DNA of 64,000 bases from contig CAWHHI010000020.1 in assembly GCA_963829055.1 (NCBI GenBank), positions 256,001 through 320,000 on the forward strand. Reading direction: 5' to 3'. The notes under the pieces are model-generated. The model saw only the letters and a list, made by a program, of their open reading frames with translations, had not been told where the DNA came from and did no database searches. The position numbers and the translations under genes are program-made. The DNA comes from an uncultured Gemmatimonadaceae bacterium. Lineage in GTDB: Bacteria; Gemmatimonadota; Gemmatimonadetes; Gemmatimonadales; Gemmatimonadaceae. Positions 1-62,800 of this stretch are shown here, one piece after another; positions within the stretch are counted from its first letter, which is position 1, and every line of letters starts with the position of its first letter.

Positions 1-975
1 GTCGCTCGATCAGATGTACGCGCAGCGCTTCGGCCAGGAGACGCCGATTCCGTCGATGCAGCTGTGCATCGAGAACGTCGACCAGGCCGGCGGCTGCGCG
101 TACGGCTACGCCTGCGTCTACACGGACTCGATCAGCTGGGCGTCGCCGACCGAGCCGCTGCCCGTCATTCGCGATCCGCGCGTGGCGTTCGAGAAGCTGT
201 TCGGCGTCGGCGGCTCGCCCGAGGAGCGCGCGAGCCGTCGTCGAACGCGTCGCAGCATTCTGGACTTCGTCGCCACCGAGATGACGTCGATGAAGCGCGA
301 CGTTAGGCGCCGAGGACCGCGGCGCGCATGGACCGCTACCTCGAGGACATCCGCGAGGTCGAGCGCCGCATCCAGCGCATCGAAGCGCGCAACGATCGAG
401 AGCGGCGAGCCGCGCGAGCTTGCCGGCGCGCCGGCTGGCGTGCCCGACTCGTTCGCCGAGCACGTGCAAGCTGATGTTCGACCTGCAGGTGCTCGCGTTC
501 GCGGCCGACATCACGCGCGTGTTCTCGTTCAAGATGGGCCGCGACGGCTCGAGCCGCGTGTACCCGGAGAGCGGCTCGGACAAGCCGTTCCACCCGGCGT
601 CGCACCACGGCGGCAACGAGAAGGGCGTGAAGGAGTTCTACCTGATCAACAAGTATCACGTCGCCATGCTGCCGTACTTCCTCGACAAGCTGAAGAGCAT
701 GCAGGAAGGCGAGAGCAACCTGCTCGACAAGACGCTGATCATGTACGGCTCGCCGATGGGCGACTCGAACCTCCACAACCATCGTCGCTGCCCGCTCATC
801 CTGCTCGGCGGCGCGAACGGGAAGCTGGCGGGCAACACTGCACATCAAGGCGCCGGACGGCACGCCGATGGCGAACGCGATGCTCACGGTCGATGCACAC
901 GCTCGGCATGGACGACATGAAGACGTTCGGCGACAGCACCGGCACTGTCCGTAGCCTCCAACGCTTCAGGCTGTC
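1..975 (+). CDS. DUF1552 (HxxSHH) family protein, 3' part, frameshifted; end approximate
   Basis: Joined ORF pieces give SMQLCIE..GCAYGYACVYTDSISWASPTEPLP..PRVAFEKLFG, ADITRVFSFKMGRD, FHPASHH, LLDKTLIMYGSPMGDSNLHNH and FGDSTG. Confidence 0.85.
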
Positions 976-1015
976 ATTCCGAGCGATGCGCAGTCGAGCT
1001 CGCAGGAATCGCGAT
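972..1015. repeat. Degenerate half copy of palindromic repeat family C
   Basis: TGTCATTCCGAGCG..GCAGTCGAG..AGGAATCGCGAT matches the left arm of the other copies. Confidence 0.6.
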
Positions 1016-1046
1016 GCCTCGAAGAGGGCTCAGCGATCGTCGGCGC

Positions 1047-3013: not shown

Positions 3014-3080
3014 GACGATTGCATGGATGACGCCGACGGCCCCAGATAGCACCTAACGAGAGAACGGCAGAACACTGAAA

Positions 3081-3157: not shown

Positions 3158-3413
3158 AACTGCAACTGCAGACAGGATGGCCAGGATTGGCCAGGATTGA
3201 GAAGATGACTGCCTCGGCGTCGGGGAGCGTGTCGCCGGGGCCTAACGAATGAAGGAACACATCTCAGGGCGAGTGGCGTCCCCAGCGGCCGTTCCTCTCA
3301 CACTGGGCTCGTTGCGGGAGGGACCCGAGTGCGACACGGAGCCTCTGTTCAATCCTGTCCATCCTGCCAATCCTGTCCTGCCGTTGCCGTTGCCGTTGCC
3401 GTTACCGTTACCG
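3158..3413. repeat. Palindromic repeat family B, copy 1
   Basis: GACAGGATGGCCAGGATTGG ... AATCCTGTCCATCCTGCCAATCCTGTC inverted ends and a (GCCGTT)n tail; homologous to 28696-28872. Confidence 0.85.
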
Positions 3414-4139: not shown

Positions 4140-6821
4140 CTACTCCGATCGCAACACTGCGTTCGGATCCACGCGAACAGCCCGCCGAGCCGGAATCGCA
4201 CTCGCGAGCAACGCGACGATGATCAGCGTCAATGCCACAGCACCGTACACCGTGACGTCCTTCGCCGACTGCGCGTACAACAGCGGCTGCACCCAACGCG
4301 CCGCGAATAGTGCAAGCACGGTTCCCAGGGTCACACCGGCGACGGCGAAGCGGATACCCTGGCCCACGACCAGCCGCGCAATGTCGGGTGCCTGCGCTCC
4401 GAGCGCGACGCGCACGCCGAGCTCCTGCATCCGTTGCGCGACGTTGTACGCCACGACTCCGTACAGCCCGACGGCCGCCACCACCAACGCCAGCCCGCCG
4501 AACGCGACGAACATCGTCGCGCCCACTTGCCACGACCGGCGCTCGCCATCGACGATCGCGCGCATCGGTCGCACCGTCACGTAGGTCTCGCCGGGCATGA
4601 CCGCCTGCAGCGCGCGCCGGACGAGGTCGACGGAGAGCTCCGGGTCATTCCGCATCCGGAGCACGACCGCGTAGCCGGCCGTCGGCCGGAACTGCTCGAT
4701 CGGCACGTAGTAGCGGTAGCGCTGCTCATCCGTGAGACTTTCCTGCGCCGCATTCTCGGCCACACCGACGACGGTGGTACACGGCATTGTGTCGGCGCCG
4801 AATCGGATGCACTTGCCTAACGCGTCCACACCCGGCCAGAGCACGTTCGCCATGCCCTCGCTCACGACGACGATGCGCGGACTTGTCGCGCGGTCATCCT
4901 TCGTGAACCCGCGGCCACGGACGATGCGCGTGCCCATGGTCTGGAAGTAGTCGGTCGTCCCCTGCTGATACGTGAACTCGCCGAGTCGACTCGCCGAGTC
5001 GACGCCGGGTACGGAGAAACGCGAAGTCGATGTGGTGTAGAACGGAATGCTGCTCACCCACGCCGCCCGCTCGACGCCGGGAATGGACTGCGAGGCCTCG
5101 AGCAGGCGCTTGCCCAACTGGACCGTCTCGCTGTCGCTCATGTTGGCCCCGCGGAGATTCCGCGTCACCGTCAACAGACGGTCCGCATCGTAGCCCAGGC
5201 GTGCTTCTCTCACGTGCTGCAGGCTTCTCACGAACAGACCGGCGCCAACGAGCAGGAGCATCGACAGCGCACCCTGCGTGATCAGCAACATCGATCGGGC
5301 GCGCGAGCGATGGTACGTCCCCTCACGAGCTCCCATCTTGAGCGTCGTGACGAGATCACCGCGCCTGCTGAACAGGACGGACGCGATGCCAGTGACCAAC
5401 CCCGCCACGAGCGCGACGGAGAGCGCCACCAGCAACGTCCGCGAGTCGGTCACGACATCCCACCGGGACACCTGCTCGATGAACAGCCGTCGGAGAGCAA
5501 CGCCACCCCACTGCGCCACCACGAGCCCCAACACGCACCCGAGCAATGACAGGACGATGCTCTCCGTGAGCGACTGGGCGACGAGCCGCGCACGACTGAC
5601 GCCGAGCGCGACCCGGAGCGCGACTTCGCGCCGCCGACGAAGCGCACGCGCGAGAAGCAGATTCGCCACGTTTGCGCACGCGATCAGCAGCACGATGGCC
5701 GCCACACCGGTCACCCAGAGCAAGGTTCGCGACTCGAGTCCGGGGTCGGGCCCCGCGGCTTCACGCAACGCAGACGCGACGGCTCGGGGACGAGCCTCCT
5801 CGGCCGGCGGAAGCGATGGGCGTCCCGCACGCTCGACGTTCCAGCTGCGCGCGTGCGCCGTCGTGAGGTCGGCGTTCGCCGCGGCCAGGCTGACGTCAGG
5901 CTTGCGGCGCACCATCATCTGCATCCAGCCCCACGAGTAGTCGAGGTAGTACTCCTTGGCGCCGGGTCCCAGCTGCGTGCCCGCATACGTGGTGATGGGA
6001 ATGTAGACCGCCGGCGATGCGCCTTCGGACGCACCGCTGAACCCCTCAGGGGCGACGCCGATGATCGTGTACGTCGTGTTGCCGATGCGGATCGTCTCGC
6101 CGAGCACGTTCCGGCGACCGTAGTCCGTCTGCCAGAACGTGTGATCGAGCACGGCGACGGCGGCGCCAATGGGCGTCGAGTCTTCCGCGGCGACGAAAAA
6201 GCGGCCTAACGCGGGCCGTGCATCGAAGAAGCCGAAGAAGCTCGCGCTCACCGCCTCGACCGGGCGCTGGCGTGCGGCCTGGCCGACGCCGATGGCCACC
6301 GCGCCGTCCGCGTACGCCGCGTAGTCCGAGAACGACGTCGTCCAGCGGCGCAGATCCAGGTACCGCGTGTACTCGAACGTGCCGCGCGTGACCTGACGGT
6401 CGCGATCCGTCAGCTGCAGATACACGCGGTGCACGTGGCCAGGATCCCTGAGGTACGGGTGCGGCCGGAACATCAGCCGATCGACGACGCCGAACATCGC
6501 GGCGTTGGCGCCGATCCCGAGGCCGAGCGTGATGATCGCGCTCACTGTGAAGCCCGGCGATCTGCGCAGCCCGCGAAACGCGTAGCGGATGTCCTGCTGC
6601 AGGTGGTCGAGCCACGGAACGGACCATCGCTCTCGCGCTTGCTCCACGACGCGGGTCGAATTCCCCAGTTGCCGGCGCGCTATCAATGCATTGTCCTCGG
6701 CGCTCGCTCCTCGCGCATCACGCTCGAGCTGCGCGCGGTGGAAGCGCAGCTCCTCCTGGAGCTCGGCGTCGAGTCGATCTCGCCGCACCCAGTCGATGAT
6801 TCTGGAGAACCATTCACGCAT
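4140..6821 (-). CDS. ADOP-type duplicated ABC permease (MacB_PCD/FtsX x2)
   Basis: Intact 893 aa ORF: ELQEELRFH, QDIRYAFRGLRRSPGF, LGLGIGANAAMF, LLIACANVANLLL, ELGVRVALGA, IPARRAVRVDP. Confidence 0.93.
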   Translation of the reverse strand: MREWFSRIIDWVRRDRLDAELQEELRFHRAQLERDARGASAEDNALIARRQLGNSTRVVEQARERWSVPWLDHLQQDIRYAFRGLRRSPGFTVSAIITLGLGIGANAAMFGVVDRLMFRPHPYLRDPGHVHRVYLQLTDRDRQVTRGTFEYTRYLDLRRWTTSFSDYAAYADGAVAIGVGQAARQRPVEAVSASFFGFFDARPALGRFFVAAEDSTPIGAAVAVLDHTFWQTDYGRRNVLGETIRIGNTTYTIIGVAPEGFSGASEGASPAVYIPITTYAGTQLGPGAKEYYLDYSWGWMQMMVRRKPDVSLAAANADLTTAHARSWNVERAGRPSLPPAEEARPRAVASALREAAGPDPGLESRTLLWVTGVAAIVLLIACANVANLLLARALRRRREVALRVALGVSRARLVAQSLTESIVLSLLGCVLGLVVAQWGGVALRRLFIEQVSRWDVVTDSRTLLVALSVALVAGLVTGIASVLFSRRGDLVTTLKMGAREGTYHRSRARSMLLITQGALSMLLLVGAGLFVRSLQHVREARLGYDADRLLTVTRNLRGANMSDSETVQLGKRLLEASQSIPGVERAAWVSSIPFYTTSTSRFSVPGVDSASRLGEFTYQQGTTDYFQTMGTRIVRGRGFTKDDRATSPRIVVVSEGMANVLWPGVDALGKCIRFGADTMPCTTVVGVAENAAQESLTDEQRYRYYVPIEQFRPTAGYAVVLRMRNDPELSVDLVRRALQAVMPGETYVTVRPMRAIVDGERRSWQVGATMFVAFGGLALVVAAVGLYGVVAYNVAQRMQELGVRVALGAQAPDIARLVVGQGIRFAVAGVTLGTVLALFAARWVQPLLYAQSAKDVTVYGAVALTLIIVALLASAIPARRAVRVDPNAVLRSE

Positions 6822-7863: not shown

Positions 7864-9581
7864 CTATCGCTTTGCCTCGTCTCGCCAGCGCTCGAGCGCG
7901 GCAACACGGGCTTCGAGCGAACCGACGCGATCCGCCTGAGCACCCGGCTTCCCCCCGGGAGGCGTCGGCACGCCATTTCCCGAACCGGACGGAGCATGCA
8001 CCGCCGCGTGTGTCGCGCTCGGAATCGCCCTACTCGGAATCGCTTGTCACTCGGGATCGTCGTGCCTAACGGGCGCTTCGCCACACCCCGTGCCGAGAAC
8101 CACAGAAACGCGCGGCCGAGCGGGCCAAGCCAGACCACCCGGAAGAGCCGCTCACCGATCGGCATGCGGAACGGACTGCGCACGAGCAGGAGAAGGCTTA
8201 TTCCGAGCAGGCTGAGGCCAGAACCCGCCATCAGAAGGTTCCGTAACGTCGACGGCACCGACTCGGCTGGCGGCGTCTCGTTGATCGCGACCTGCGCCTG
8301 GTTCGTCAGCGTCCACTGGAGGTGGAGCGAGAACTGAATGAGCAGCAGGGCGACGGGCAGCTGCAGCAAGGCAATGATCAGTGTCTTTCGTCGCCGGCGC
8401 CGCGTATCCGGATCCATGCGCAGTTGCTGACGCATGCTCTCGCGCTCATCGACCGTCGCGCGCATGCCAGTCACCACATCCTCTGTCCGGAACCCGAGGA
8501 CCGCGAGCCGGCGCGCGGCCGAGGAAGCCAACAGCGCACGGGTGAAGCCGATGGAACCAAGGAAGATCCCCGGTATCGCCGCCCATGCCGCGCCGACCTT
8601 GCTGCTGAACGTCTGCAGCATCAGCCAGCTCATGATCGTCAGGAAGACGAGCACCAGGCCGAGCGTCCCCGCCTCCTGCGCGAACAGTCTGATGGGCAGC
8701 GGAATCTCCGGAGCGGCGAGCTGGGCCTCGTCGATTGCCTCGACCAGCGCTTCCGCCGTAGCGAAGCGGGCGGCTGGCTCTTTTGCCACACAGCGGTCGA
8801 TGGCTACCCCGAGCGCCTCGGGAAGATCGGCGCGCAGTGACGTCGCGGGCGGCGGTGTCTCGGTCAGCTGCTTGACGAGAATCTGCTGCGTGCTGTCACC
8901 CGTGATGACCGACTGTCCCGTCAGCGCGAACAGCGCCACCAGGCCTAACGAGTACAGATCGCTCCGGCCATCGACCACGTCTCCGGACGCCTGCTCCGGA
9001 CTCATGTACTCCGCCGTGCCGACCACTTCGCCGACGCGCGTCAGGCCTTGCGTGAATCCCTTCGGCTCGACCTTCGTCACGATCGAGCGCGAGATCCCAA
9101 AATCCATGAGCAGGGCGCGGCCCGTCGCGCGCTCGAGCATGATGTTGTCGGGCTTGATGTCGCGGTGCACGACACCGCGGCCATGCGCGTACGCGAGTGC
9201 GTACCCGATATCCTGCAGCAGACGTACGATGCTCCGTACATCCAGCGGGCCCGCGCGCCGCACACGCTCCGCGATGCTCTCGCCTTCGACGTACCCCATC
9301 GCGAACGCGAGGACGCCCTCGCGCTCCTCGACAGCGTGCACCGGCACGATGTTCGGGTGCGAGAACGACGCGGCCGTCCGCGTCTCCCGCAGAAATCGCT
9401 CGCGCAGCGCGGAGTCGCCGGCGAATTCCGCCGGCAGGACCTTGAGCGCGACCTGTCGATCGAGCCGCAGGTCGCGCGCGAGATACACGGCGCCCATGCC
9501 GCCGCGACCCAACTCACGCTCGATGGCATAACGATCACCGAGCTGCTGACGAATATCGGGGACTGCGGTCGGTGCGGTCAT
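7864..9581 (-). CDS. Hanks-type Ser/Thr protein kinase with membrane C-terminal region; frameshift near 8045
   Basis: LGRGGMGAVY, VALK, HRDIKPDN, DFG, GTAEYMSPEQ, DLYSLG; the shifted frame ends ..SLEARVAALERWRDEAKR-TAG at 7864. Confidence 0.9.
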
Positions 9582-10518: not shown

Positions 10519-10559
10519 GCGGCCGTCGCGCGGGACCTAACGACAAACAACGGAACGAG

Positions 10560-11088: not shown

Positions 11089-13992
11089 ATGTCCGAGCAC
11101 ATGCCGCCCGAGGATGACCCGATCATCCGCGGCCTCCGCAACGCAGGCATCCGACCGCTGCCGCCTCGCGGTACCGGTCACCGGCCGACGCTCCCGCGAT
11201 CGGCGCTGCTGGTGATTGGCCTGGTGCTGCTCTGCGTCGCGTTCGTTCCATTCCTGGCAGGCCGTCTCACCGATTGGCTCTGGTACCGGGAGATTGGTTT
11301 CGAGCGCGTCTTCCTCACGAAGGTCATCGCCCAGTGGGCCCTTGGGCTTCCCACCGCGCTGATCGCGTTCGTCGTGATGTACGGCAACGCGCGGTTCGCG
11401 TTGCGCGGGGGCGAGCTGCGACGGCAGGCACCGGTGAGCGCCGTGCGATCGGGCGCGGACCTGCGCCAGGCGGCACACAACCTGTTCGAGCGCGGCATCG
11501 AGTGGCTTGCGCTACCGGCAGCGGCGGTGCTCTCGGTGCTCGTCGCGCTCGGTGCCGCGGGCCAGTGGCGCACGCTATTGCAGGCGGCTTACGCGACACC
11601 GTTCGGCGTCAGCGATCCGGTGTTTGGCCGAGACGTGGGCTACTACGTGTTCACGCTCCCGGCCATCGAGCTCGTGACGGGGCTCCTCTACGGGCTTCTC
11701 CTGCTCACGCTCATCGCCGTCGTTCTTCCGATCCATCTCTTTCGGGGCGAGATCGAGCGGTCGCCGCGCGGCGGCATCTCGATCGGGCCGCGTGCCCAGA
11801 CGCATCTGGCGGCGCTCGTCGGCCTGGCGCTCATCGTGACTGCGGTCCGCATCCACTTCGTGCGCATTCCCGGCTTGCTGTTCGGAGAGCATCAGCCGCT
11901 CATCGGGGCGAGCTACGTCGATCTCCACACGCGGCTCCCTGCCCTCCACGTGTTGAGCGTCATCGCACTCGCGGGCGGGCTGCTCATTCTGTGGGCCGGC
12001 ATGCGCGGTCGGCTGGTGGCGATGGCGGCGCGCGTCGTCGTCGGCTACCTGATCGCGACCGGATTGACGGCCCTCGTGCCCGCCGCCTATCAGCGCCTGG
12101 TGGTGCAGCCTAACGAGCTCGCGCGTGAAACGCCGCAGATCCTCAACCACATCCACGCCACACGTCAGGCATGGGGGCTCGAGGGGATCGAAGAGCGCGA
12201 GCTGAGCAGCGACACTCGCCTGACGCCGCAGCTGGTCGCGGCGAACCGGGCGACGATCGACAACGTCCGCCTGTGGGATCGCGAGCCGCTACTGCAGACG
12301 TTCGGGCAGATCCAGTCGATCCGCACGTACTACGACTTCCTCGCTGTGGACGACGATCGCTACCGGATCGGCGGCCAGCTGCGTCAGGTATTGCTGTCGG
12401 CGCGCGAGATGAACACGTCGTCGCTGCCGACGCGCGGGTTCATCAACGAGCATCTGACCTACACGCACGGCATGGGCGTGACGTTAGGTCCGTCCAACGC
12501 GGTCACGAGCGAGGGCCTGCCGGTCCTGTTCATCAAGGATCTGCCGCCGGTGTCGACGATCGATGTGAAGGTCACGCGGCCGCAGATCTACTACGGCGAG
12601 ATGTCGAACGACTTCGTGCTCGCGCCGAGTCGGCAGCGGGAGTTCGACTATCCGGCAGGGGAAGGCGATGCAGCAGCGTACTCGTCGTACGACGGACGCG
12701 GTGGTGTGGACGCGTGGATCGTTCGCTCGGCGGCTGCTGTACGCGATTCGCTTCGGGTCGCTCAACATCCTGCTGTCGAACGATCTCACGGATCGCACGA
12801 AGATTCTCTACTACCGCGACGTGAACGAGCGCGCCGAACGGGCGCTCCCGTTCGTGGCGTTCGATCGCGACGCGTACCTCGTGATCACCGACGCCGGGCG
12901 CCTCGTGTGGATGCTCGACGGCTACACGACGTCCGACCGGTACCCGTATGCGCGCGGAGTTGGCGACGGCGTGAACTACATGCGCAACAGCGTGAAGGTG
13001 ACGGTGGACGCGTACGACGGGAACGTGCGTGCGTACCTCGCGGCACCTAACGATCCGATCATCCGGACGCTGACGCGGATCTATCCGGGGCTGCTGCAGC
13101 CACTGGATTCGATGCCCGCCGACCTGCGCGCGCACGTCCGGTATCCACAGGACCTCTTCCAGCTGCAGAGCGCCTTGTTCGCCACGTATCACATGGCGAA
13201 CCCCGAGACGTTCTACCATCGCGAGGATCAGTGGCAGATCCCTAACGTGGCCAGCGGCTCCAGCGCGAGCGAATCACAGGGGCGGTCCGCATCCGAGGCG
13301 TTCCTGCGTCACATGGTGATGCGTCTGCCGGGCGAACGTGACGCCCGAGTTCATCCTCATGCGGCCGTTCACGCCACGGCAGAAGGACAACCTCGCGGCG
13401 TGGATGGTGGCGCGGAACGACGGCGCGAACTACGGCAAGCTCGCGGTCTACCGTTTCCCGCGGCAGAGTCTCGTGTTCGGCCCGAACCAGATCGTGAATC
13501 GCATCAATCAGGATACCGAGGTCGTCGCGGCAGATCACACTCTGGGATCAGCGCGGGTCGGAGGTGCTGCGCGGAGAGCTGCTCGTACTGCCGATCGAGG
13601 GCGCGCTGATCTACGTGCAGCCGCTGTACCTTCGCGCGCAGGGCGGACGCATTCCCGAGCTCAAGCGCGTCGTCGCGGCACACGAGGGGCGCGTCTCGAT
13701 GGCGGAAACGCTGGACGGCGCGCTCGCCGCATTGCTCGGTGGGAGTGTGCCGGCCGCGGATTCGACTGCCGCCGTGGTCGCGTCGACTCCAAGCGAGACG
13801 CCGCCTGGAGCGAGCGGCGCAGCGCCGCCAACGGTCGCCGCGGGCGCGGCCGAGCTCACGAAGCAGGCGCGTGAGCACTACGATCGCGCGCGGGCAGCGC
13901 AGCGCGCCGACGACTGGGCGACGTACGGCGCCGAGATGCGCCGGCTCGGTGAGGTGCTACGACAACTCGAGGCCGGAGGAAAGAGGCCATAG
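11089..13992 (+). CDS. UPF0182-family membrane protein, frameshifts near 12715, 13335 and 13525
   Basis: [79 protein letters not shown]. Confidence 0.92.
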
Positions 13993-14227: not shown

Positions 14228-14908
14228 CTACTGGTCGCCGAGTGGAGTGATCTTGACTCCGCCGTTAGGCGCGTCGAGCAGGAGCACCGTCCTGATCCAC
14301 AGCGCGTCCACGCGAATCGGCGCGCTCTCGGCCAACACCTGCGTCCCACCTTTCGGCGTCACCCGGATCACCCAGTTGCCCGGGGTGCTCTCCATGAATG
14401 GCGTCTTGGCCTCGAACGGGAATGGATCCATGAACTTCACGAACGTCGAGAAGTCGGGCTGCGTGCGGTAGACGTCGATCGCCGGCGCGTTCGCGGCGAG
14501 GTGTATCACGCGCAGCTTGCCCTTTCCGGCAACCGGTGTCGCGCCGGTATCCCCGAGCGCGACCGGAGTGAGCGCGCTCGGGGTCCCGGTCACCACCACG
14601 CGCGTCGTGTCGCCGGCGCGTAGCGTGACGGTCGTCCCACCCTGGGACGGGGCCGTACCTGCGGGCACGACCTTCACCTGATGCTGACCTAACGAGAGCG
14701 CGATGGGACTCGACGGAACGCCGTACGCCACGCTCGTGAGGCGGGTCTGGCCGTCGACGACGACGTCGACGGACGCGACCGCCGCGACGCCGGGTACGAC
14801 CTGCAAGCGACCGTCGGTATTGCCGGTAGTAGCCGGGCCGGAGGGATCATCGGAGCAGGCGGCCGCGGTGAGCAAGGCTGGCAGCAGCCACAAGGTTCGA
14901 GCGTTCAT
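14228..14908 (-). CDS. DUF4397-domain lipoprotein
   Basis: Lipobox-like LLTAAAC; GRLQVV..VDVVVDG..YG; GKLRVIHLAANAPAIDVY. Confidence 0.75.
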   Translation of the reverse strand: MNARTLWLLPALLTAAACSDDPSGPATTGNTDGRLQVVPGVAAVASVDVVVDGQTRLTSVAYGVPSSPIALSLGQHQVKVVPAGTAPSQGGTTVTLRAGDTTRVVVTGTPSALTPVALGDTGATPVAGKGKLRVIHLAANAPAIDVYRTQPDFSTFVKFMDPFPFEAKTPFMESTPGNWVIRVTPKGGTQVLAESAPIRVDALWIRTVLLLDAPNGGVKITPLGDQ

Positions 14909-16100: not shown

Positions 16101-16557
16101 GCTGGTGTGTGCCTCCCGGGAGCTCGACGATCTCGAACCAGTACGTGCCTAACGCGCGTACGATGTCCACGAGCCGGTCGAACGTCACCGGCTTCGAGAT
16201 GAAGGAGTTGGCGCCGAGGTCGTAGGACCGCAGCACGTCTTCCTCGGTCTTCGATGTCGTGAGGATGACGACGGGAATGCGGCGGAGGTCCGGATCGCGC
16301 TTGATCTCCTGGAGCGCCTGCCGGCCGTCCTTTCGCGGCATGTTGAGATCGAGCAGGATGAGTCCCGGACGCGGCGCGTCGACGACGGCGTACTTGCCGC
16401 GACGCATCAGATAGTCCATGAGCTCCTGCCCGTCCTCCACACAGCGGAACGTGTTGCCGAGGCGACTCTCGCGCATCGCGTCCGCTGCCATCATGCGGTC
16501 GTCCGCGTCGTCATCGGCCATGAGGATCGTGATGGTCCCCGGTGCTTCATGCTGCAT
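16093..16557 (-). CDS. Single-domain response regulator (Rcp1-like)
   Basis: ILMADDDADD..RPGLILLDLNMPRKDG..IPVVILTTS..SYDLGANSFISKP..YWF. Confidence 0.93.
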   Translation of the reverse strand: MQHEAPGTITILMADDDADDRMMAADAMRESRLGNTFRCVEDGQELMDYLMRRGKYAVVDAPRPGLILLDLNMPRKDGRQALQEIKRDPDLRRIPVVILTTSKTEEDVLRSYDLGANSFISKPVTFDRLVDIVRALGTYWFEIVELPGGTHQHA

Positions 16558-23560: not shown

Positions 23561-23685
23561 GTCGTAAGCTAGCAAGGGACCTTGTCATCCGCCTGTGCGT
23601 GGCCGCACATTGGGGCAGGAGTCGACGGGCAGCCGGAGGCTCGATTACCCGTCGCGTCTGGCGTTAGGCCCTGGCCCTCTTTCGA

Positions 23686-44434: not shown

Positions 44435-44596
44435 GCCGATTGCCCGTTGACCGGATGAGCCACGTGACCGGAACGGTCGCGTGGATGAGCTCCGTACGGC
44501 GTCGGCCTAACGAGTCGATGGCCTGCGGGCGGCGCTACCGGATAGGCAGCGCTCACGTTCCCGCGGCGGTGCTCGCGGGTATTCCGCGAGCCTCGA

Positions 44597-45149: not shown

Positions 45150-46930
45150 ATGCCGACATACAAGGCTCCGCTCGCCGATATCCGGTTCGTTCTCGACGAC
45201 CTCCTCGATGTCGGGCAACTTACCGCGCTGCCCGGCTACGCCGACGCGACTCCCGACCTGCTCGCGACCGTGCTCGAGGAAGCCGCCAAGCTGTGCGAGG
45301 AAGTGCTCGCCCCGCTCAACCAGTCCGGCGACGCCGAAGGGTGTCACTACGAGAACGGGGTCGTCCGTACTCCGCGTGGTTTCCGCGAGGGGTACGACGC
45401 CTACCGCGAGGGCGGGTGGCCGGCCATGGTCGCGCCGCCAGAGTTCGGGGGACAGGGGTTGCCCCACATTGCGGGCGTGGTGCTCGACGAGATGCTCTGC
45501 TCGGCGAACCTCTCGTTCAGCATGTATCCCCTGCTCGCGCACGGCAGCGTCGGCGCGCTCGAGCGCTGGGGCGACGAGGAGCTCAAGCGTCGATTTCTGC
45601 CGAGGCTCGTGGACGGCTCGTGGACCGGCACCATGTGCCTCACGGAGCCGCACGCCGGCACCGACCTCGGATTGATTCGGACGCGCGCCGTGCCCGCGGG
45701 CGACGGCGCGTACCTCGTGACCGGCACGAAGATCTTCATCTCGGCCGGGGAGCACGATCTCACGGACAACATCGTCCACCTCGTGCTCGCGCGACTCCCC
45801 GACGCGCCGCCGGGCACCAAGGGCATCAGCCTGTTCGTGGTGCCAAAGCGCCTGCCGACGGACGAGGGACTGCGCCGGATCGCCGAACGGCGTCGTCTGC
45901 GGGTCGATCGAGCACAAGATGGGGATCAAGGCGAACGCGACGTGCGTCATGAACTTCGAGAACGCGCGTGGCTGGCTCGTCGGCGACCCGCACAAGGGCA
46001 TGCGCGCCATGTTCACGATGATGAACGGCGCGCGACTCGGCGTCGGCATGCAGGGGCTCGGCCTGGCCGAGGTGAGCTACCAGAACGCCGTGGCGTACAC
46101 CAGGGAGCGCCTGCAGGGCCGGTCCGCGCACGGCTCGCCAGCACCTAACGCCGATGCCGACCCGATCATCGTGCACCCGGACGTGCGGCGCATGTTGATG
46201 ACGATGAAGGCGTACATCGAGGGCATGCGCGCACTGGCGTACTGGGTCGGCATGCTGATCGACGTCGAGGAGCGTCACGCCGATACCGCCACGCGCGAGG
46301 AAGCGACCGACCTCGTCGCGCTCATGACGCCGGTCATCAAGGCGTTCTGCACCGACGTCGGCTTCGAGATCACGAACCTCGCGCTCCAGTGCTTCGGCGG
46401 TCACGGCTACATCCGCGAGTACGGCATGGAGCAGTTCGTGCGCGACGCGCGGATCGCGCAGATCTACGAAGGCACGAATGGCGTGCAGGCGATGGACCTG
46501 CTCGGCCGCAAAGTGCCTGACGGCAACGGCCGCCTCGTGCAGCGGTTCGTCGCGCTGGCCGAGCGAGATCTGGCCGAGGCGGCGAAAGCAGCCTGCGCTC
46601 CGCGCGATGGCGGAGCGCGTGCGCGACGCGCTGCACGCGCTGCTCCAGGTTACCGGAACGGTGATGGCGCGCGCGGCCAGGGATCCGGACGAGATCGGCG
46701 CCGCCGCGACCGACTACCTGCGCATGTTCGGCCTGGTCGCGACCGGATGGATGTGGGTGCGCATGGCGGCGACGGCGATCGCGAAGGCCGGCGAGGGCGC
46801 GACCTCACTGCCCAAGGTCGACACGGCGAACTTCTACGTCATGAAGCTGCTGCCGCAGACGCACGCGCTCGCCGCGCAGATCGAGGCCGGCGCGCCGCCC
46901 GTCATGGCACTCGACGCGTCGGCATTCTAG
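45150..46930 (+). CDS. Acyl-CoA dehydrogenase (long DmdC/FadE5-like type), frameshifts near 45880 and 46600
   Basis: MPTYKAPL, GTMCLTEPHAGTDLG, EHKMGIKAN, MNGARLGVG, GGHGYIRE, IYEGTNGVQA. Confidence 0.93.
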
Positions 46931-48030: not shown

Positions 48031-48566
48031 GAGAGCGCGTGATCGAGATCCGGCCCGACGATCACGTTTCCGGATCGCCTAACGCGCCAGTCACGCTCGT
48101 CGAGTATGGTGACTACGAATGCCCGCACTGCGGCGCCGCGTTTCCGATCGTCGAGAACATCCGCCGGCGGCTCGGCGATCGCCTCCAGTTCGTGTACCGC
48201 CACTTCCCGCTGACGCAGTCGCACCCGCATGCGGAGCACGCGGCCGAGATCGCGGAGGCGGCCGGCGAGCGTGGAGCGTTCTGGGCCATGCACGAGACGC
48301 TGTTCGCGAACCAGAGTGCGCTCGACGACGTGAGCCTCGTCGCGTATGCCCAGAGTGTCGGCGTGGACCCGCAGTGGGCCGCGGAGGCGCTGGCGGCCGG
48401 CACGTTCGCGCCGCGCGTCCGCGAACAGTTCATGAGTGGCGTGCGCAACGGAGTGAACGGGACACCGACGTTCTTCATCAACGGCAGGCGCTTCGACTAC
48501 TCGCTGAACGAGCGCGTGCTGCTGGCGACGCTCGAGGATGCGGCGCTCGCGAACAGCTCGAGCTGA
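48027..48566 (+). CDS. DsbA-family thioredoxin-fold protein
   Basis: VEYGDYECPHC, YRHFPL, GVNGTPTFFING. Confidence 0.9.
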   Translation: MRERVIEIRPDDHVSGSPNAPVTLVEYGDYECPHCGAAFPIVENIRRRLGDRLQFVYRHFPLTQSHPHAEHAAEIAEAAGERGAFWAMHETLFANQSALDDVSLVAYAQSVGVDPQWAAEALAAGTFAPRVREQFMSGVRNGVNGTPTFFINGRRFDYSLNERVLLATLEDAALANSSS

Positions 48567-48963: not shown

Positions 48964-49104
48964 GCCACGCGAGAAGGCACGCGAAGTGGCAGAAGGCTGC
49001 CGAATTGCTCGGGCCTGACACTGATAAATCGTGCTTTGTCCGGCCGAGCCAGCTTCGGCGGCCCCGCAAATGCGCTCTATGGGGTTTCCTCGTTAGGGAG
49101 TGTC

Positions 49105-53026: not shown

Positions 53027-55279
53027 TGCGGACCCGGCGATCCCTCCGAGCGCTGCCTGCCTCGCAGAATATCCAGGCGGAGCTCCGTCCACCCGCGGAG
53101 TTGATAGTACTCCACGCGGATCTCGTGGCGGCCGGCGCCTAACGCGGCAGCGTCCACCTTCGACTCGTGCGGCGCCCAGCTGTCGATCGCGAGGCGGCCA
53201 TCGACCCACACGCGCACGCCGTCATCGCTGATGGTTCGTAGCGTGTACTCACCGGGTCCGAGGGTGACAGCGCCCGTTGCGCTGATGGCAAAGCGCTCTT
53301 GCGGCAGGCCGGCAATGGTCGGCCGATACCACACGTAATCGAGCCGCGACGGTCGTTGTGACAGTGTGGGCTGGCCGCGCAACAGTGTCGCGAAGGCATC
53401 GGCGTTGGCTGGCGGGTCGCTCGTGCTGTCGCGCCACGTGAAGAACCGAACGTTCCACGCTATGGGTGGCTCGAAGCGTCGATACGAGAAGCGCGTCGGA
53501 CTCTGATCGCGCGTGTTCGACCCACGGCGATACTCGAGCGTGAGCGCCCAATCGTGTTCATTCCCCTTCGTGGGCGTGACGATGATGCTGTCAGTCCCGA
53601 TATCACCCACGCGCCCGCTGTCGTGAGACACGCGCGCGATCCCACGCCGTTCGACGACCCGCCAACGACCTGCCGGCCCGAGGACGCGCAACGTCAGGGG
53701 ATTGACGCGCGAGCTATCGGCGGGCCAGAGCAATGGAGCTCTCCAGTCGTACGGCCCCCACTCGGTGACGATGATGGCGGAGCGCGCGCGTCGCGCCAGC
53801 GAGTCAGTGCCGGGCTCGAGGCCACCTGACATCTTCGGAGGCGCGAGCCGCGAGAACTCTGGCGGGAGCGCCGGCAGGTCTACGATCTCTCCCGCGCGCT
53901 GGGCCGCACGCCCGGACTCGCGCGTGGTGTCGGCCATGCCGCGCTCGTCGGCAACAATCCACCGCGACGTGTCGGCGAGCACGTAGATCGAGTCGGCGCG
54001 CACCACCCGATTCCCCGTTAGGCGCGTGCCTTCTGTCGCCGAGGCGCGCACGGCGACCCGCGGACCGTTGAAGATGTTCTCGCGTGAGCCGATAGTCTCG
54101 GCTCCGCGTATCACGGTGCTTCGGGTATCCCCAGTCCGACGGCTCGATGGGGTTCGCCCAGAGGTAGACGGCGGTGGAATCTTCGGTGAACCGGTTGTAC
54201 GAGATGTCGTTGTTCTGCCCGTGCTCGATCGCGATCCCGACGCGGTTTCGCCGGAAGTCGTTGCCGATGATTTTCGAGTCGTAGCTGTAGCCGCCCCACA
54301 AGCCGTGATCGGAGCCCTCGATCAGGTTGTTGATGAACGTGTTACGGCTGAACGTCGCTTCCATGCCGTTCGTGGGCGCGAAACTGAAATCGTTCCCGTA
54401 GAACAGATTGTCGTTCGCGCCGCCCTCGCCGGTGTCCATGGTGCTCTGGCCGGCCCAGAGGAAGAGGCCATCGCCGCTGTGCGTCATGGAGTTGTACGCG
54501 ACGACGTTGCGGCAGCTCTGCTCGTAGACGAGCAAGGCGGCCGAGTCCTGGCCGCGCCGGTAGAAGCCGTGGCTGTAGCCGCGCACGTTGTAGTCGGCGT
54601 GGTTGTGCGCGATGAGGTTGTCGCTCGACCGATAGAGACCGAACCCGATTCCGGAGTTGAACGAGACGACGTTGTTCCAGAGACGGAGGCTGTCGCTGCG
54701 CACGAGCAGGAAGCCGTTCATGCCGTGCTCCGCGCGATTGCCGCGAATCTCGCCGCCGCGCACGTCCACGAGATACGCGGCGGCGCCGAAGCGCAGCCAC
54801 TCGTCCTTCTCGTTATGGTGGAACGAGAGCCAGTCGGCGATGCTCTCGTGCTCGATGAGGCTGAACAACCGTGGTTTCCAGTTGTCGCCCAGGTCGTTGT
54901 CGGTCAGCGTGAGGTTGCGCGTGCCGCGCGCGAGGATGCCGACCTTGTAGCCGCGCACGCGCGCGTGCTGGATGCGCACGTTCGCGCCGCCGTCGACGCG
55001 GATCCCGACGCCGGCGCCCGCGTCGGGGTCGGCGTTAGGCGGCGCGCCGTCGAGCGTCGCGCCCGCGAAGTCGACGGTGATGTCGGTGCCGCGGATGGTG
55101 ACCGCGGCGTCGTCGAGCGCCCTGGGCGCGGACAGCCGATACACCTTGGGCGCGATGCGCACCGACCTCGTGATGACGAGCCCCGGCCGGAGCTCGATGG
55201 TCGGCAGCTGGGCGGCGAGATGCTGGCCGAGCATCGCCCACATCGCGGCGCCGACGACGGCAGCTCTGAGTGATCTCAT
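53023..55279 (-). CDS. Secreted right-handed beta-helix (NosD-like) plus PA14-domain protein, frameshift near 54085
   Basis: Signal peptide; Asn-ladder repeats (NNVVSFNSGIG, DNLFYGNDFS); PA14 GEYTLRTISDDGVRVWVDG..GRHEIRVEYYQ. Confidence 0.82.
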
Positions 55280-57720: not shown

Positions 57721-59286
57721 CGAGGCGCCGCGCCCCTGAAGGCATTCCGGTTCTGATCGCCCTCGACACCAAGGCGAGCGGGTCGCTCTCGCGGCAGATC
57801 TATCGCGCGCTGCGCGACGGCATTCTGGCGGGCCGACTCACGGGTGGCCTGCGACTCCCGTCCACCCGCGCGCTGGCAATCGACCTCGGCGTGTCGCGCA
57901 ACACCGTCGTCACGGCGTTCGACCAGCTGCTGGCGGAGGGCTACGTCGAGAGCCGAGTCGGCCGTGGGACACGCGTCAGCCAGACGATGCCGGACCACCT
58001 GCTGCACGCGCGCTCGCGGCCGCGCGTCAGGATCGTGACGACCGCTCCGGGGAACTCTGCTCCGGGGAGCGCTCCCTCCGCGCGCGGCGCGTTGCTCGTC
58101 GATCACGCGCGTCGCAGGTCGGCGGTGGACGAGGGGACGGTCGCGTTCGCGCCCGGCGTTCCCGCGCTGGACCTGTTTCCCTGGCAGACGTGGAGTCGCC
58201 TCGTCGCGAATCGGGCCCGCGAGCTCGGCGCCAGCATCTGGCCGGCTACGCCGATTCGTTAGGCTACCGGCCGCTGCGCGAGGCGGTCGCGCGTTACGTC
58301 GCGGTCGCGCGTGGCGTCAACTGCACCGCGGATCAGGTCCTGATCGTCGGCGGGTCGCAACAGGGGATCGATCTCGTCGCCCGCGTCGCCACCGATCCTG
58401 GCGACTCGGCGTGGATCGAGGATCCGGGCTACTATGGCGCGTTAGGCGCGTTCGCCGGGGCGGGCTTGCGCGTCACCGGCGTGCCCGTCGACGCGGACGG
58501 CATGAGTGTCGCGGCCGGTCGCGTCGGCGCGCCGGCCGCGCGTCTCATGTACGTCACGCCATCGCATCAGTTCCCGCTTGGCGTCACGATGTCGTTGTCG
58601 CGACGGCTGGAGCTGCTCGCGGCCGCGGCGGAGATGCAGGCGTGGATCGTCGAGGACGACTACGACAGCGAGTTCCGCTACGTGAGCCGCCCGCTGACGG
58701 CATTGCAAGGCCTCGATACCGAGAGGGCGCGTCGTGTACGTCGGCACGTTCAGCAAGGTGATGTTCCCCGCACTGCGCATCGGCTTCGTCATCGCCCCGC
58801 AATCGCTGCTGCCAGCGATCACCGCGGCGCGCAAGTTCGCCGGCACGCAACAGGCCGTGCTCGAACAGATGGTGCTCGCCGATTTCATCACCGATGGACA
58901 CTTCGAGCGACACGTGCGACGCATGCGCGCCGTGTACGCCGAGCGGCAGCAGCGATCTCATCGATGCGCTGCGAGCGGAGTGTGCGGGCGTGCTCGATGC
59001 GTCGCCGGCGGGGTCGGGCATGCATCTCGTGGGTTGGCTGCCGCCGGATGCGGATGACGCGGACGTATCGCGCCGAGCAGCCACACGAGGCGTCGATGCG
59101 ATTGCGTTGTCGGCGTTCGCGGTCGGCCGCGGCGTCGGGCGACCAGGCGTGCTGCTCGGCTACGCGCACGTGAATCGCGCGACGATGTTCGCCGCGGCTC
59201 GTGGCCTGGCGGGTGCGATACGAGAGAGTCTCGCACAACGGCCGCGAGCGCTCGCGGGGCGAGCGAGTCGAGGCGCGTCCGACTAG
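57717..59286 (+). CDS. MocR/PdxR-type GntR regulator with PLP aminotransferase domain, frameshifts
   Basis: RLPSTRALA..GVSRNTV, EDPGY, YVTPSHQFPLG, EDDYDSEFRY, GTFSKVMFPALRIG. Confidence 0.92.
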
Positions 59287-59344: not shown

Positions 59345-59840
59345 TCGCTGCGCCGGTGCCGGTGGGAACTACGATTGGGCGGATCAACTGCAAAACTGCC
59401 GGATACTGCTTTGCATCGACGCTGGCTCATCACCGGGCTCTGAAGTAATAGGAACGGCCGCTCGGGACGCAGGAGTCTCCCGAGCGGCCGTTCCCAAAAT
59501 TCCCGGCTCGTTGCGCGAGGAGCGGGATCTACCGAGCGGTATCCTGCTTCTTCCGTTTCATCCGCCCAATCGCAGTTCCCACCGGCCCCGGCGCAACGAT
59601 GCCGGGAATGCAAAGCCGGCCTGTCATTCCGAGCGGAGGCCCGAAGGGCCGCAGTCGAGGAATCGCGATCGTCCCGATAGAGGGCTCCTCTACCCGTATG
59701 ATCGTCGATTCCTCGACTGCGCCCTGAGCGGCCTCCGCTCGCAATGACAGCCGGCGCGCTCGCTCGGAATGACAACTATCCGGCCGTTTTGCAGTTCATC
59801 CGCGCCATCGTAGTTCCCACCGGCCCCGGCGCGATGATGC
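59345..59840. repeat. Composite repeat family A, copy 3, with nested family C element (59622-59774)
   Basis: Same central GGAACGGCCGCTCGGGA hairpin and ATCCGCCCAATCGCAGTTCCCACCGGCCCCGG arms as the other copies. Confidence 0.9.
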
Positions 59841-59865
59841 CCGGTAAATCAAGTGCATCGCGCCA

Positions 59866-62800
59866 TCACGGTTTCCATACCGGCACTCGGCCACTCGTCC
59901 ACGGCACCCCAGCCGTCTCCGCCTGATCCCCCACGCGCTTGAGATCCTGCTCGACCAGCGTACGCAACCGATCGAGCAGCCCACCGAGCTCCGCGGCCGC
60001 GATGTCGTACTGACGCTTCTGCGTTGCCGTCGCGTCCTCCATCGTGTTCGACCACAGACTGTTCGCGATGCCGTTCACGCGGTTGAGCAACGACGGCGGC
60101 GTCGGCTCGCTGCGTCGCGCCATCGTCGGATCGCCCGCGAGCGCCATTTGAATGTCGCGCAGCCGCCGTCTCGATGCGCCGCACTTCGGCATCCAGCTTC
60201 GTCATCCGCGCTCGGCGTTTCCTGGACGGCGCGCTTGAGCAACTGCACGCGGCTCATTGTTTCATTCGCTACCGCGTTCGCGCCGAGCAATGCGCGTTGC
60301 AGCGCGGCCGTCTTCTGCTGGAATGCGACGACCGCCGGCGGAGCGTGGCGTCGTCCCCGAGTCGAGCGGCGCGACCATGAACGACTGCGGATCGCCTATC
60401 GCGGTGACGACGCCATCGACGCGCTTGGCGAGCGCCACGGTGTAGCGCCCCGGCGCCACCATCGGCCCCGCGGGACCGCCACCACCGAACGGCGTTTCCT
60501 GATCGGGCTCGTCGTTCGCGCCGCCGCCGCCCCACCTCCTCCAGCACCACCGGCGCCGGCGCCGGCGGCCACTGGATTCGGCGTCGGGTACCGCAGGTTC
60601 CACGTCACGCGCTGCACGCCCGCCGTCGTCGGACCCGTTAGGCGCCGCACGACACGACCCTCGGCGTCCGTCACCGTCAGGATCATCGCCGGCGCCTCCT
60701 CCTGATCCTCCACCTTGAGCGAATCCCATGGCGGATACATCACATCCTGCCCACGACGCGCCGCATCGCGCTCAGCTGCCTGACGACGCGCGCGACGACT
60801 GCGCAGCTCGCGGTTGAGGTGATACGTGAACACCGCGCCCGGCGCCGGATTCGGCGTCAGGAAGAACGATGCGCCCTGGAAGCTCGCGCCCGTGCCGCCG
60901 AGTGGGCTCGAGAGCACGTACATGGACGCGCGCTTCACCGGGAACAGCGTCGCCTCGCGCGCGACGACCTGGCGGCGTTAGGCCGCGCAGCGGCGAGAGG
61001 TCATCGAGGATGTAGAAGCCGCGACCGAACGTCGCGACCACGAGGTCGTCCTCGCGCTTCTGAATCGCCAGGTCGCGCACCTGGATCGTCGGCAGCCCGC
61101 CGCGGAGACGCGTCCAGTGCTGGCCGCCGTTCGTCGTCGACGTAGAGACCGAACTCCGTACCAACGAACAGCAGGTTGCGATCGATGTGGTCCTCGATCA
61201 CGACGTACACCGTCCCTCGCTCGGGGAGATTGCCGGCGATCGACGTCCAGCTCCGTCCGAGGTCGGTGCTCTTGAGCACGTACGGCTTGTAGTCGCCCGA
61301 CTTGTGATTGTCGAACGATGCGTAGACCGTGTTCGCGTCGTGCTGCGACGGCGTCACGCGCGAGACGAACGTCGTGTCCGGCACGCCCGGGAAGCGACTC
61401 GATCTTCCGCCAGCTCTGTCCGCCGTTCTCGCTGATCTGAATCAGTCCGTCATCGGTACCGGCGAACAGCAGGCCGTCCTTCACCGGCGACTCGGCGAGC
61501 GTGACGACGCTCCCGTAGAGCGACGTCGACGTGTTCTTCGCGACGGCGTCCACACTCCACACGCGATCCATCATCTTGAGCCGGTTCCGATCGATCTGAC
61601 GCGACAGATCGGGGCTCACCGCGCTTCCACGACGTGCCGCGATCATCGCTCCGGTACACGCGATCCGACGCGAAGTAGAGCCGGGTGTTCGCGTGCGGGC
61701 TGATGATGAGCGGCGAGTCCCAGTGCCAGCGCAGCGGCTCCTCGCCTGGCTCGGACTGTGGCACGATGTTGATCGACTCACCCGTCGCGAGATTGAAGCG
61801 CTGCAGGTTGCCGTGCTGCGACTCGGCGTAGACGGTGTTGGGGTCCTTCGGGTCGACGCGCGACTGGAATCCGTCGCCGCCGGCGGTGACGAACCAGTCG
61901 GCGTTCGTGATGCCATGCTCGGTGCGCGTGCGCGACGGGCCACCTAACGAGAAGTTGTCCTGCGTGCCGCCGTACACGCGGTAGAACGGAAGCGCGTTGT
62001 CGGTGTCCACGTGGTAGAACTGCGTGACCGGCAGGTTGGCGAAGAACTTGTACGTCTGCCCGCGGTCGAACGACTCGTACAGTCCGCCGTCGCATCCGAT
62101 GAGCAGGTGCTCGGTCTCGTCGGGGTCGATCCACACGACGTGATTGTCCACGTGCTTGTTGCGCTCGCCGAGTCGGCGAAAGTTCCTGCCGCCGTCGTCG
62201 GTGATCATCGTCTGCACGTCGACGGCATACACGCGATCGACGTTCACCGGATCGGGGAAGATCTCGTTGTAGTACAAGCCACCCGCCTGGTAGCCGCTCA
62301 TGCGCTCCCAGTTCACGCCACCGTCGCGCGAGCGAAAGAATCCGCCGCGTGCGTTCGCGGCTTCCGCGATCGCGTACACGACGTCCGGATTCGCCGGCGC
62401 GACAGCGAGACCGATGCGCCCGAGATCTTCCGTCGGAAGACCTGTCTGCGACTTCTTCCACGTCGCGCCGGCGTCGGTCGACCGCCAGAGTCCCGACTGC
62501 GGGCCACCGGCGATGTAGCCCCACTGTCGGCGGAAACGCTGCCACGTCGTGGCAATGAGCGATGTCGGGATTGCGCGGGTCGAGCACGATGTCGCTCGCG
62601 CCGGACCACTCGCCGCCGTCGAGCACCTTCTTCCATGTCTTGCCGCCGTCCGTCGTCTTGAACAGCCCGCGATCGCCACCGCGACTGAAGAGCGGTCCCT
62701 GCGCGGCGACGTACACGACGTCGGAGTTTCGCGGATCGATGAGGATCTTGCCAATGTGCTCGGACTGCTTGAGCCCGACGTTCTGCCAGGTGCGTCCGCC

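Follow-up and report, generated by a model that had tools for sequence, protein, structure and literature searches.

The stretch of DNA analysed here, called the window, covers the 64,000 bases C20:256001-320000 of G000, the genome of an uncultured Gemmatimonadaceae bacterium (7,784,024 bases in 20 contigs, 85.9% complete and 3.95% contaminated). The genes of G000 were called crudely by codon log-odds, which gave 7,157 fragments covering 75.5% of the genome. In the window they include genes for a MacB/FtsX-like protein (4140-6773(-)), a Ser/Thr kinase (7392-9587(-)), a UPF0182 protein (11086-13975), a histidine kinase (16547-17659(-)), BNR/Sortilin proteins (25726-27687(-) and 61450-62559(-)), isocitrate lyase (33432-34751(-)), malate synthase (35025-36446(-)), a ScfR-type regulator (36774-38228(+)), AcrB (38442-41515), a HlyD-type protein (41855-43051(-)), an acyl-CoA dehydrogenase (45886-46983(+)) and a beta-helix protein (53804-55261(-)). 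Through genes and spacers alike runs one exact heptamer, CCTAACG/CGTTAGG, hereafter called the word, whose full 8-letter form is GCCTAACG. We found 54 copies, 29 on the + strand and 25 on the - strand, in exact agreement with the count and positions given in a preliminary description of the window. Dinucleotide-preserving shuffles yielded a mean of 2.63 copies (standard deviation 1.67, maximum 8; n=100), and the zero-order expectation, formerly estimated at about 7, was recomputed as 7.2. About five CCTAAC[A/T] variants had been announced and 5 were present (4 A, 1 T). It had likewise been said that nearly every CTAA lies in the context of the word and that a purine usually precedes it: 54 of the 63 CTAA in the window are inside the full word and 51 of the 54 copies follow a purine (G 40, A 11).

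By context, 16 of the copies encode x-Leu-Gly (CG TTA GG), 12 Pro-Asn (CCT AAC), 4 Leu-Thr (C CTA ACG) and 2 Val-Arg (C GTT AGG), the remaining 20 being intergenic or uncalled; these are the rare-codon contexts that had been reported before. The Leu-Gly copies on the + strand lie in the MacB/FtsX-like gene (4816..4822 and 6205..6211), the Ser/Thr kinase gene (8065..8071), the genes 14228-14827(-) (14688..14694) and 16093-16539(-) (16148..16154), the histidine kinase gene (17394..17400), the gene 20074-21480(-) (21122..21128), the genes for isocitrate lyase (33559..33565) and malate synthase (35722..35728), the fragment 41003-41515(-) (41196..41202), the HlyD-type gene (42483..42489 and 43005..43011) and the BNR/Sortilin gene 61450-62559(-) (61943..61949). 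On the - strand they are found in the UPF0182 gene (12482..12488, where relatives have CGCTCGG or similar) and at the end of the called fragment 27717-28019(+) (28006..28012). The copy at 8944..8950 (+) falls in the kinase motif LYSLG and is retained in 5/5 of the same-genus genomes with which positions 1-20000 of the window were aligned (73-84% identity in the pieces used). Pro-Asn is encoded on the + strand by the copy in QPNE of the UPF0182 protein (12109..12115, retained in G001, G002 and G005) and by those in the acyl-CoA dehydrogenase gene (46144..46150) and the gene 48003-48566(+) (48078..48084), and on the - strand by copies in the genes 14228-14827(-) (14263..14269) and 17610-19553(-) (18437..18443 and 19016..19022), the BNR/Sortilin gene 25726-27687(-) (26115..26121, 26643..26649 and 27453..27459), the isocitrate lyase gene (34691..34697) and the beta-helix gene (54016..54022 and 55033..55039). 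Leu-Thr is written in the gene 118-456(-) (301..307, -), the same BNR/Sortilin gene (27664..27670, -), the ScfR-type regulator gene (37349..37355, +) and the gene 60396-60971(-) (60636..60642, -), and Val-Arg in the gene 21465-22442(-) (21696..21702, +) and the AcrB fragment 38442-39443(-) (38799..38805, +). The residues described as conserved, LYSLG of the kinase at 8944 and VQPNELA of UPF0182 at 12109, were both seen.

Outside called genes, or in none that was called, stand the + copies at 3052..3058, 3241..3247, 19564..19570, 28777..28783, 44506..44512 and 53138..53144 and the - copies at 22910..22916, 23662..23668, 24977..24983, 28339..28345, 32919..32925, 49091..49097, 58257..58263, 58440..58446 and 60976..60982, together with a + copy between called genes at 10536..10542 that is retained in G001 and G005. 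Two further + copies lie where the UPF0182 frame is broken. The TAA of the copy at 13046..13052 ends the broken frame 11089..13050, the same copy encodes Pro-Asn in the frame 12668..13609, and it is retained in G005 only; the copy at 13241..13247 stands in the continuation of the gene, where relatives have CCCGAGG/CCCGACG, an amino-acid change. Three - copies had been proposed to provide stop codons. This holds for 31221..31227, which contains the TAA stop of the open reading frame 31223..31789(-), and does not hold for the other two with respect to called genes: the copy at 33422..33428 follows the isocitrate lyase stop at a distance of a few bases and terminates an alternative frame alone, and that at 24977 ends no called gene.

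In the whole of G000 the word occurs 6,391 times (3,154/3,237 in the two orientations), or 0.82/kb, whereas an order-2 Markov model expects about 249 copies. It is present on 20/20 contigs at 0.64-1.09 per kb, and the view that it is a lineage-specific, genome-wide signal recurring about once per 1.2 kb is borne out by these figures and by its sharing among the genus and scattered relatives. A genome of the same family and equal guanine-plus-cytosine (GC) content, G008, has 82 copies in 3.8 Mb. A logo built from all CTAA sites and from all exact copies gave the consensus Y-[G 0.78/A 0.13]-CCTAACG-H (H, not G), that is GCCTAACG/CGTTAGGC, which is alike in genes and spacers; the flanks beyond it are uninformative, leaving 7-8 informative bases and no flanking AT tracts. 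Two one-letter variants are enriched in G000, CCTAACA (462 copies, 4.8-6.5x) and CATAACG (820 copies). In a ranking of 6-8-mers against a maximal-order Markov model the word did not stand out, since the signal is already contained in its sub-words.

The manner in which the word is written into genes places its origin at the level of DNA. In called genes of G000 it occurs in the four frames that avoid a stop, CG TTA GG (x-Leu-Gly, 1,628 copies), CCT AAC G (Pro-Asn, 1,194), C CTA ACG (Leu-Thr, 795) and C GTT AGG (Val-Arg, 521), with sense and antisense copies in balance (1,989 vs 2,149). Pro-Asn is written CCT AAC in 1,194 of 1,977 cases (60.4%) before a G-initial codon but in 28 of 647 (4.3%) before a C-initial one. 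Similarly, Leu-Thr is written CTA ACG in 22.1% of cases after ..C against 0.3% after ..G, Val-Arg is written GTT AGG in 6.1% against 0.1% depending on the neighbouring base, and Leu before Gly uses TTA in 36.1% after.CG against 2.6% elsewhere. Synonymous-codon shuffles within genes (n=5) left 309-364 genic copies (mean 342), 12 times fewer than the 4,138 observed, so that the enrichment survives both Markov and codon correction. As many as 57% of all TTA codons of G000 lie inside the word, as do 21% of CTA, 14% of CCT and 9% of AGG codons; the share of TTA and CTA had been put forward earlier as a check. The choice among synonymous codons depends on the neighbouring base, and the signal resides in the DNA and not in the protein. 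Synonymous changes, and even some that are non-synonymous, have served to write the word, against the codon habits of the genome itself.

Copies are denser outside called genes (1.18/kb) than in them (0.70/kb), and among spacers the density is 1.29/kb in convergent, 1.07/kb in tandem and 0.69/kb in divergent ones; fewer sequence constraints go with more copies. The density peaks at stop codons and in the 75 bp downstream of them, where it is 1.4-1.85/kb with no preferred orientation. The word contains 291 of 870 TAA and 238 of 1,861 TAG stops, although some of these copies may be ends made by frame breaks. Strand symmetry extends to the scale of replication: the + strand holds 46.8% of copies where the GC skew of 100-kb windows is positive and 51.4% where it is negative, a small shift that could reflect the C-richness of the word itself, and adjacent copies share their orientation in 3,293 of 6,371 cases (51.7%). 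Chi and the polar sequences that guide chromosome segregation, the FtsK orienting polar sequences (KOPS) and architecture imparting sequences (AIMS), are likewise over-represented asymmetric 7-8-mers; unlike the word, they are co-oriented with replication, and the enrichment of the word is far larger. The earlier argument against Chi or KOPS from the lack of strand bias is therefore upheld by the near-equal strand shares across opposite GC skew.

Copies of the word avoid one another at short range. In G000 pairs in either relative orientation fall short of expectation at spacings below 50 bp (observed/expected 0.07-0.36), of 50-100 bp (about 0.3), 100-200 bp (0.34-0.56) and 200-300 bp (0.73-0.81), and the ratio reaches 1 beyond 400 bp; gaps of less than 100 bp make up 2.3% of the total against 8.0% under a Poisson model. 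Long gaps are not avoided (28 gaps of more than 6.4 kb, 31 expected). The same was observed in a sample of G022, a genome of another genus with 1.73 copies/kb (23 gaps below 100 bp, 73 expected), and in a phage described below with 3.3 copies/kb (coefficient of variation of gaps 0.57, no gap below 96 bp). The denser the copies, the shorter the range over which they avoid one another, roughly 300 bp at 0.8/kb, 150 bp at 1.7/kb and 100 bp at 3.3/kb.

Several reading frames of G000 are broken where those of relatives are intact, namely UPF0182 (around 12668-13050), AcrB (in four pieces) and a methylase-helicase gene (C8:73551-78414) that in relatives is a single frame of about 1,070-1,085 aa. These breaks are either assembly indel errors or pseudogenes and may account for the 85.9% completeness of the 20-contig genome. 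Because of them a systematic miscall was suspected, by which the word would be an artefact of sequencing or assembly, or else a by-product of amino-acid and codon usage. This explanation is already refuted, and we give it practically no weight. Six independent and fragmented same-genus assemblies (260-1,170 contigs) each hold 3,403-6,707 copies of the word against 598-754 of a control, the reversed word; these copies, some of them at orthologous sites, and the thousands in G022 cannot be errors of one assembly. No one-step neighbour of the word is missing in G000. A single-base miscall of the common neighbour CCGAACG, in particular, was rejected since that heptamer is present 3,534 times, at the level of G008. 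The twelvefold loss in synonymous shuffles disposes of codon usage, and phage contigs bear the word too. The preliminary description had reasoned that no single-base miscall could explain the copies, and on this the same-genus assemblies, the orthologous sites and the intact neighbour words agree.

In the alignment with the five same-genus genomes, 20 out of 46 site-by-genome pairs retain the word, 2.4 times the rate for all aligned 7-mers (16.7-19.2%), which answers the earlier call for a comparison of orthologous sites. Turnover is nevertheless considerable, and sites lost or gained differ at 2-4 of the 7 bases (CGTTAGG vs CGCTCGG; CCTAACG vs CCGTCCG or CCCGAGG), and some of the differences change amino acids, as where Pro-Asn corresponds to Pro-Ser or Pro-Glu/Asp in relatives. 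The word is a genuine signal of the whole genome, borne by double-stranded DNA and maintained by selection or by molecular drive.

A drive of this kind could come from modification combined with biased repair, in the style of very-short-patch repair or of the highly iterated palindrome 1 (HIP1) of cyanobacteria: a methyltransferase would mark the word and a bias of mismatch repair would convert near-words into it. The word is short and non-palindromic, like the recognition sites of type IIG, III or ISP enzymes, and CCCAACG, one C-to-T step away, is reduced to 0.38 of the G008 level (a loss of about 146/Mb). It is, however, the sole depleted one-step neighbour against the G008 baseline. The 21 one-step neighbours together amount to 1,747/Mb against 1,360/Mb in G008, while the word rises from 30/Mb in G008 to 821/Mb; with a gain of about 790/Mb and neighbours that are undepleted overall there is no mass balance, and single-mismatch repair bias cannot therefore have made the word. 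Moreover, gains take 2-4 changes, and pure mutation bias leaves the mutual avoidance of copies unexplained. As to the enzymes, contig C8 of G000 holds a D12-class methylase gene and an Eco57I-like methylase domain fused to an SNF2 helicase, both frame-broken, whereas profile searches of this 85.9% complete genome gave no match to Vsr (PF03852), C5 (PF00145), N6_N4 (PF01555) or N6 methylase (PF02384). Among 61 relatives, 7 of them of the same genus, the Eco57I/SNF2 fusion gene is found in 58 regardless of word count; conserved as it is across the order, it behaves as a core gene and not as a mobile restriction system. The D12 gene is found in 17 of the 61, of which 10 are word-poor (a genome being word-rich when the word outnumbers the control), and was not found in G022. 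We therefore consider modification with biased repair very unlikely, and the methylation self-mark that had been among the functions first proposed finds no support, its two methylase-like candidates failing to track the word. HIP1 itself (GCGATCGC) resembles the word as a hyper-abundant octamer that lies in genes and varies between lineages. It differs in being a palindrome, one reportedly linked to methyltransferases (Elhai 2015), whereas the word is asymmetric and followed by no methylase. The Eco57I/MmeI-like-SNF2 genes of G000 and of relatives (L126-L129) encode about 1,000-1,130 aa.

The word is restricted to a clade and patchy within it. In 18 of the 61 relatives the word outnumbers the control: all 7 of the genus (ratio 5.7-9), G022 (ratio 14; 9,004 copies in 5.1 Mb, 1.77/kb) and ten others, G052, G039, G028, G037, G033, G041, G048, G010, G050 and G027 (ratios 5.6 to 1.1). 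Most of the remaining relatives have ratios of 0.05-0.4. In an even draw of 401 genomes from the class, 6 exceed the control, G000, G266, G288, G360 and G426 (family f1) and G378 (f2); none of the 278 genomes of families f4-f10 does, and none outside the order. These tallies include unpublished genomes, G021 in the set of 61 and G187, G078, G075, G083 and G374 in the set of 401, none of them decisive singly. In the samples of G022 and of G041 the word ranks first among 7-mers. A 200-kb sample of the one word-poor genome inspected in this way, G008, gave no 'dialect' word, its top 7-mer reaching a ratio of 3.6 with 36 copies. By the identity of a shared gene, G022 and G041 are more distant from G000 than several word-poor genera are, and the distribution of the trait is therefore patchy.

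Within G000 the word is lacking from certain contig ends. C11:1-40 kb, C6:1-50 kb and C6:590-623 kb (to 623330) hold 0-1 copies against an expectation of about 16 per 20 kb, or about 30-40 copies. Besides a DDE transposase and a D5-type primase, their genes are of ordinary metabolism, and the ends of C6 have 70-73% GC; housekeeping-type genes there include a second isocitrate lyase with a ScfR regulator, glutamine synthetase and chorismate synthase. These ends are probably foreign or chimeric DNA, which makes word density a sharp check for mis-joins. Profile searches for prophage hallmarks in G000 gave no match to HK97 capsid, portal (PF04860) or TerL (PF03354). Depletion in phage and horizontally acquired DNA had been suggested as a check: foreign-looking contig ends are word-poor, and one phage type is dense in the word.

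This phage type emerged when IMG/VR was scanned for two copies of the word 200-230 bp apart. It comprises three contigs, L229 (7,780 bp, 26 copies), L454 (7,109 bp, 24 copies) and L423 (4,622 bp, 14 copies), which are fragments with 3.0-3.4 evenly spaced copies/kb, a GC content of 0.59-0.60 and genes for virion structural proteins (phrog_3287, phrog_2941) and an endolysin. Shuffles of L229 predict 0.79 copies against the 26 present, and in 79 loci of related phages, whose structural protein is 38-45% identical, the word occurs 20 times over 783,653 bases. L229 and L454 are 90.5% identical and have 23 of 24 words in common, while only 52.5% of all 7-mers agree; in the phage, too, the word is therefore subject to purifying selection or to constant rewriting. 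A fourth viral scan yielded no further word-dense contigs. One other contig, L212 (20,221 bases, GC 0.624; 20 copies, 1.0/kb, 16 of them in one orientation), was dropped since its matches to phage families are only weak; its genes mostly run one way. L247, with portal and protease genes and 1.3 copies/kb, is a weaker second phage case. The viral contig L204 (13,409 bases, GC 0.416) holds 14 copies of the full 8-letter word and may represent a structure like a cassette array inside a virus.

A very high share of the relatives, 38 out of 61, have an integron integrase above the curated cut-off of TIGR02249, and a good part of the few copies found in word-poor genomes stand in rows. At four loci of the word-poor genomes G013, G015 and G017 (L193, G013:C3:1-9000; L194 and L195, G015:C43 and C80; L196, G017:C113), 22 of the 25 CGTTAGG close an attC hairpin of 91-134 nt with the form GCCTAACA...YCGTTAGGCR. 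These are classic cassette arrays, with near-identical attC sites every 0.4-1.4 kb, and in G008 two attC-like hairpins with the same boxes adjoin the IntI gene. Compared with the integron attC site (R' GTTRRRY, inverse core RYYYAAC), the word shares 8-10 identical positions with the R' box and flank in relatives; read at the sequence level, it is the R' core plus flanking bases of the cassette sites of the order, and CCTAACA is the other arm. GTTAGGC is the archetypal integron core in other phyla as well, and the identity of word and attC core is possibly a meaningful coincidence.

One explanation built on this identity is that the word is the R-box of the integron integrases of the order and has spread through their binding, through use of secondary sites or capture of cassettes, or through an uptake or reader system tuned to cassette cores. 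The hairpins of G013, G015, G017 and G008 speak for it, as does the fact that the second-best enriched variant in G000, CCTAACA, is the other attC arm and that integrases are so unusually frequent, G000 included (265.7 bits, with a cut-off of 265, for the gene at C20:208041-208958, which lies 47 kb upstream of the window). The integrase does not track the word, however: 11 of the 18 word-rich genomes possess it and so do 27 of the 43 word-poor ones. The copies of G000 are single, unpaired, inside conserved genes and devoid of the inverse core and hairpin of an attC site. A genome-wide hairpin scan found about 55 weak symmetric inverted-pair loci among the 6,391 copies and no arrays. The variants that are tolerated also contradict GTTRRRY, CGTTATG being enriched and CGTTGGG, CGTTAAG and CGTTAGA not. 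According to bioRxiv 10.1101/2022.09.11.507474, secondary sites of the integrase in E. coli need only GWT. We regard spread by integron integrases as distinctly unlikely. Beside intI of G000, 11 successive copies in the same orientation lie 0.5-1.2 kb apart (C20:209827-218228); this run was rejected as a cassette array, as it has no attC hairpin or inverse core. Two attC-like hairpins were seen elsewhere on C20, at 192696-192795 and 197207-197346.

None of the genes tested (eight candidate families or genes, among them methylases, ComP, ComEC, PilQ and integron integrase) follows the word, so that the check for co-occurrence with a methyltransferase or competence gene that had been proposed yielded no association. 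We infer that a sequence-specific protein reads the word and that uptake or recombination is the process in which it is read, and we tentatively favour the reading of the word as an uptake-sequence-like self tag, the best fit among the three functions proposed in the preliminary description, of which the nucleoid-protein site is a possible alternative. Competence machinery would prefer DNA fragments that bear the word, as in the model for the DNA uptake sequence (DUS) of Neisseriaceae and the uptake signal sequence (USS) of Pasteurellaceae; recombination of such fragments into the chromosome would spread each new copy, and the word would build up to about 1 per kb, in either orientation, wherever the coding sequence tolerates it. 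One copy per fragment would be enough, and the mutual avoidance at short range accordingly suggests, on the uptake reading, that one copy per segment suffices. Like DUS and USS, the word is short, non-palindromic and clade-specific, occurs about once per kb on both strands and more evenly than chance, is written into genes via rare codons and some amino-acid changes, is scarce in acquired DNA and is accumulated by phages. For DUS, PMC7371117 gives a density of one per 400-1100 bp and a reduction in genomic islands. PMC6776037 states that temperate Pasteurellaceae phages accumulate USS to about host level (~750/Mb) and that probable lytic ones do not; the phage finding therefore fits the uptake model.

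A number of observations weigh against the uptake reading. The word belongs to a different phylum, is shorter than DUS or USS and has 7-8 informative bases with no flanking tracts. Close inverted DUS pairs form terminators in Neisseria, whereas close inverted pairs of the word are depleted and provide no such terminators. To our knowledge, ComP is the only known receptor family for uptake sequences, and ComP_DUS (PF16732) was found in none of the 7 genus genomes and not in G022 or G041; it scored above cut-off in 2 of the 61 relatives, both word-poor. Hardware for uptake is present as such, but ComEC (G000 and 59 of 61 relatives) and a PilQ-like secretin (60 of 61, all under the curated cut-off) are equally common in word-poor relatives. 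Among the phages, L229 has no DNA match in the 61 relatives, and its density of 3.3/kb is 2-4 times that of any sampled host genome. There is no dialect in word-poor G008, and the same word recurs in separated branches while closer ones go without it, so that repeated loss or transfer of the reader would be needed.

The main alternative is an intracellular role. A host protein might bind the double-stranded word on any DNA in the cell, either so as to organise or segregate the chromosome or in order to halt or spare an enzyme of DNA processing or defence, much as Chi without its orientation, and phages would copy the word to receive the same treatment, as they may copy Chi. Even, orientation-independent spacing that scales with density agrees with such a self mark or architectural site, as do a phage with more copies/kb than any sampled host, kept by purifying selection, a patchy distribution across genera that is typical of accessory systems, and foreign-looking DNA without the word. 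On the other side, no candidate reader was found, there is no Chi- or KOPS-like replication skew, long gaps are not avoided (28 of more than 6.4 kb vs 31), and a newly acquired system that depends on marks in their thousands would leave an unmarked genome unprotected; the precedent of USS also explains the phage. We consider an intracellular mark of this kind possible but rather unlikely. A doubtful variant combines the self mark with the cassette arrays: the word would be an encoded self mark deliberately identical to the cassette core of the order, the machinery for uptake or gate-keeping would admit or spare both kin DNA and cassettes, and phages would survive by copying the mark. If true, it would link uptake-like self tags, integron cassette traffic and phage mimicry, which have so far been treated apart.

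Whichever protein reads it, a word of the class of the uptake sequences and HIP1 saturates genomes of an abundant and little-studied soil phylum. We know of sequence-specific DNA-uptake self tags from only two families of Proteobacteria, and we know of no reader of HIP1 identified so far. In the literature, with subscription journals outside the scope, neither the word as a methylation motif nor an 'uptake sequence' in Gemmatimonadetes was found, and among the matches listed the bare word gave primers and similar only. The switching on and off of the word between close genera means that its reader should be findable by phylogenetic profiling, and together with the identity with the attC core and the selection in phage it makes three handles on the system. 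In practice, the word can serve as a marker for binning, for foreign or chimeric DNA and for the assignment of phages to hosts, including those of the L229 type.

Two further observations concern the window itself. Two stretches of about 130-180 bp that flank the gene 14228-14827 (14018-14199 and 15052-15181) match each other in inverted orientation, and copies at 75-94% identity occur on C4, C6, C10, C11, C13, C3 and C20 and in same-genus genomes; the pair appears to belong to a dispersed repeat resembling a miniature inverted-repeat transposable element. Lastly, a search of public sequencing runs returned 20 rows from 14 studies with 0.38-0.70 of the sampled words from positions 8000-16000 of the window.

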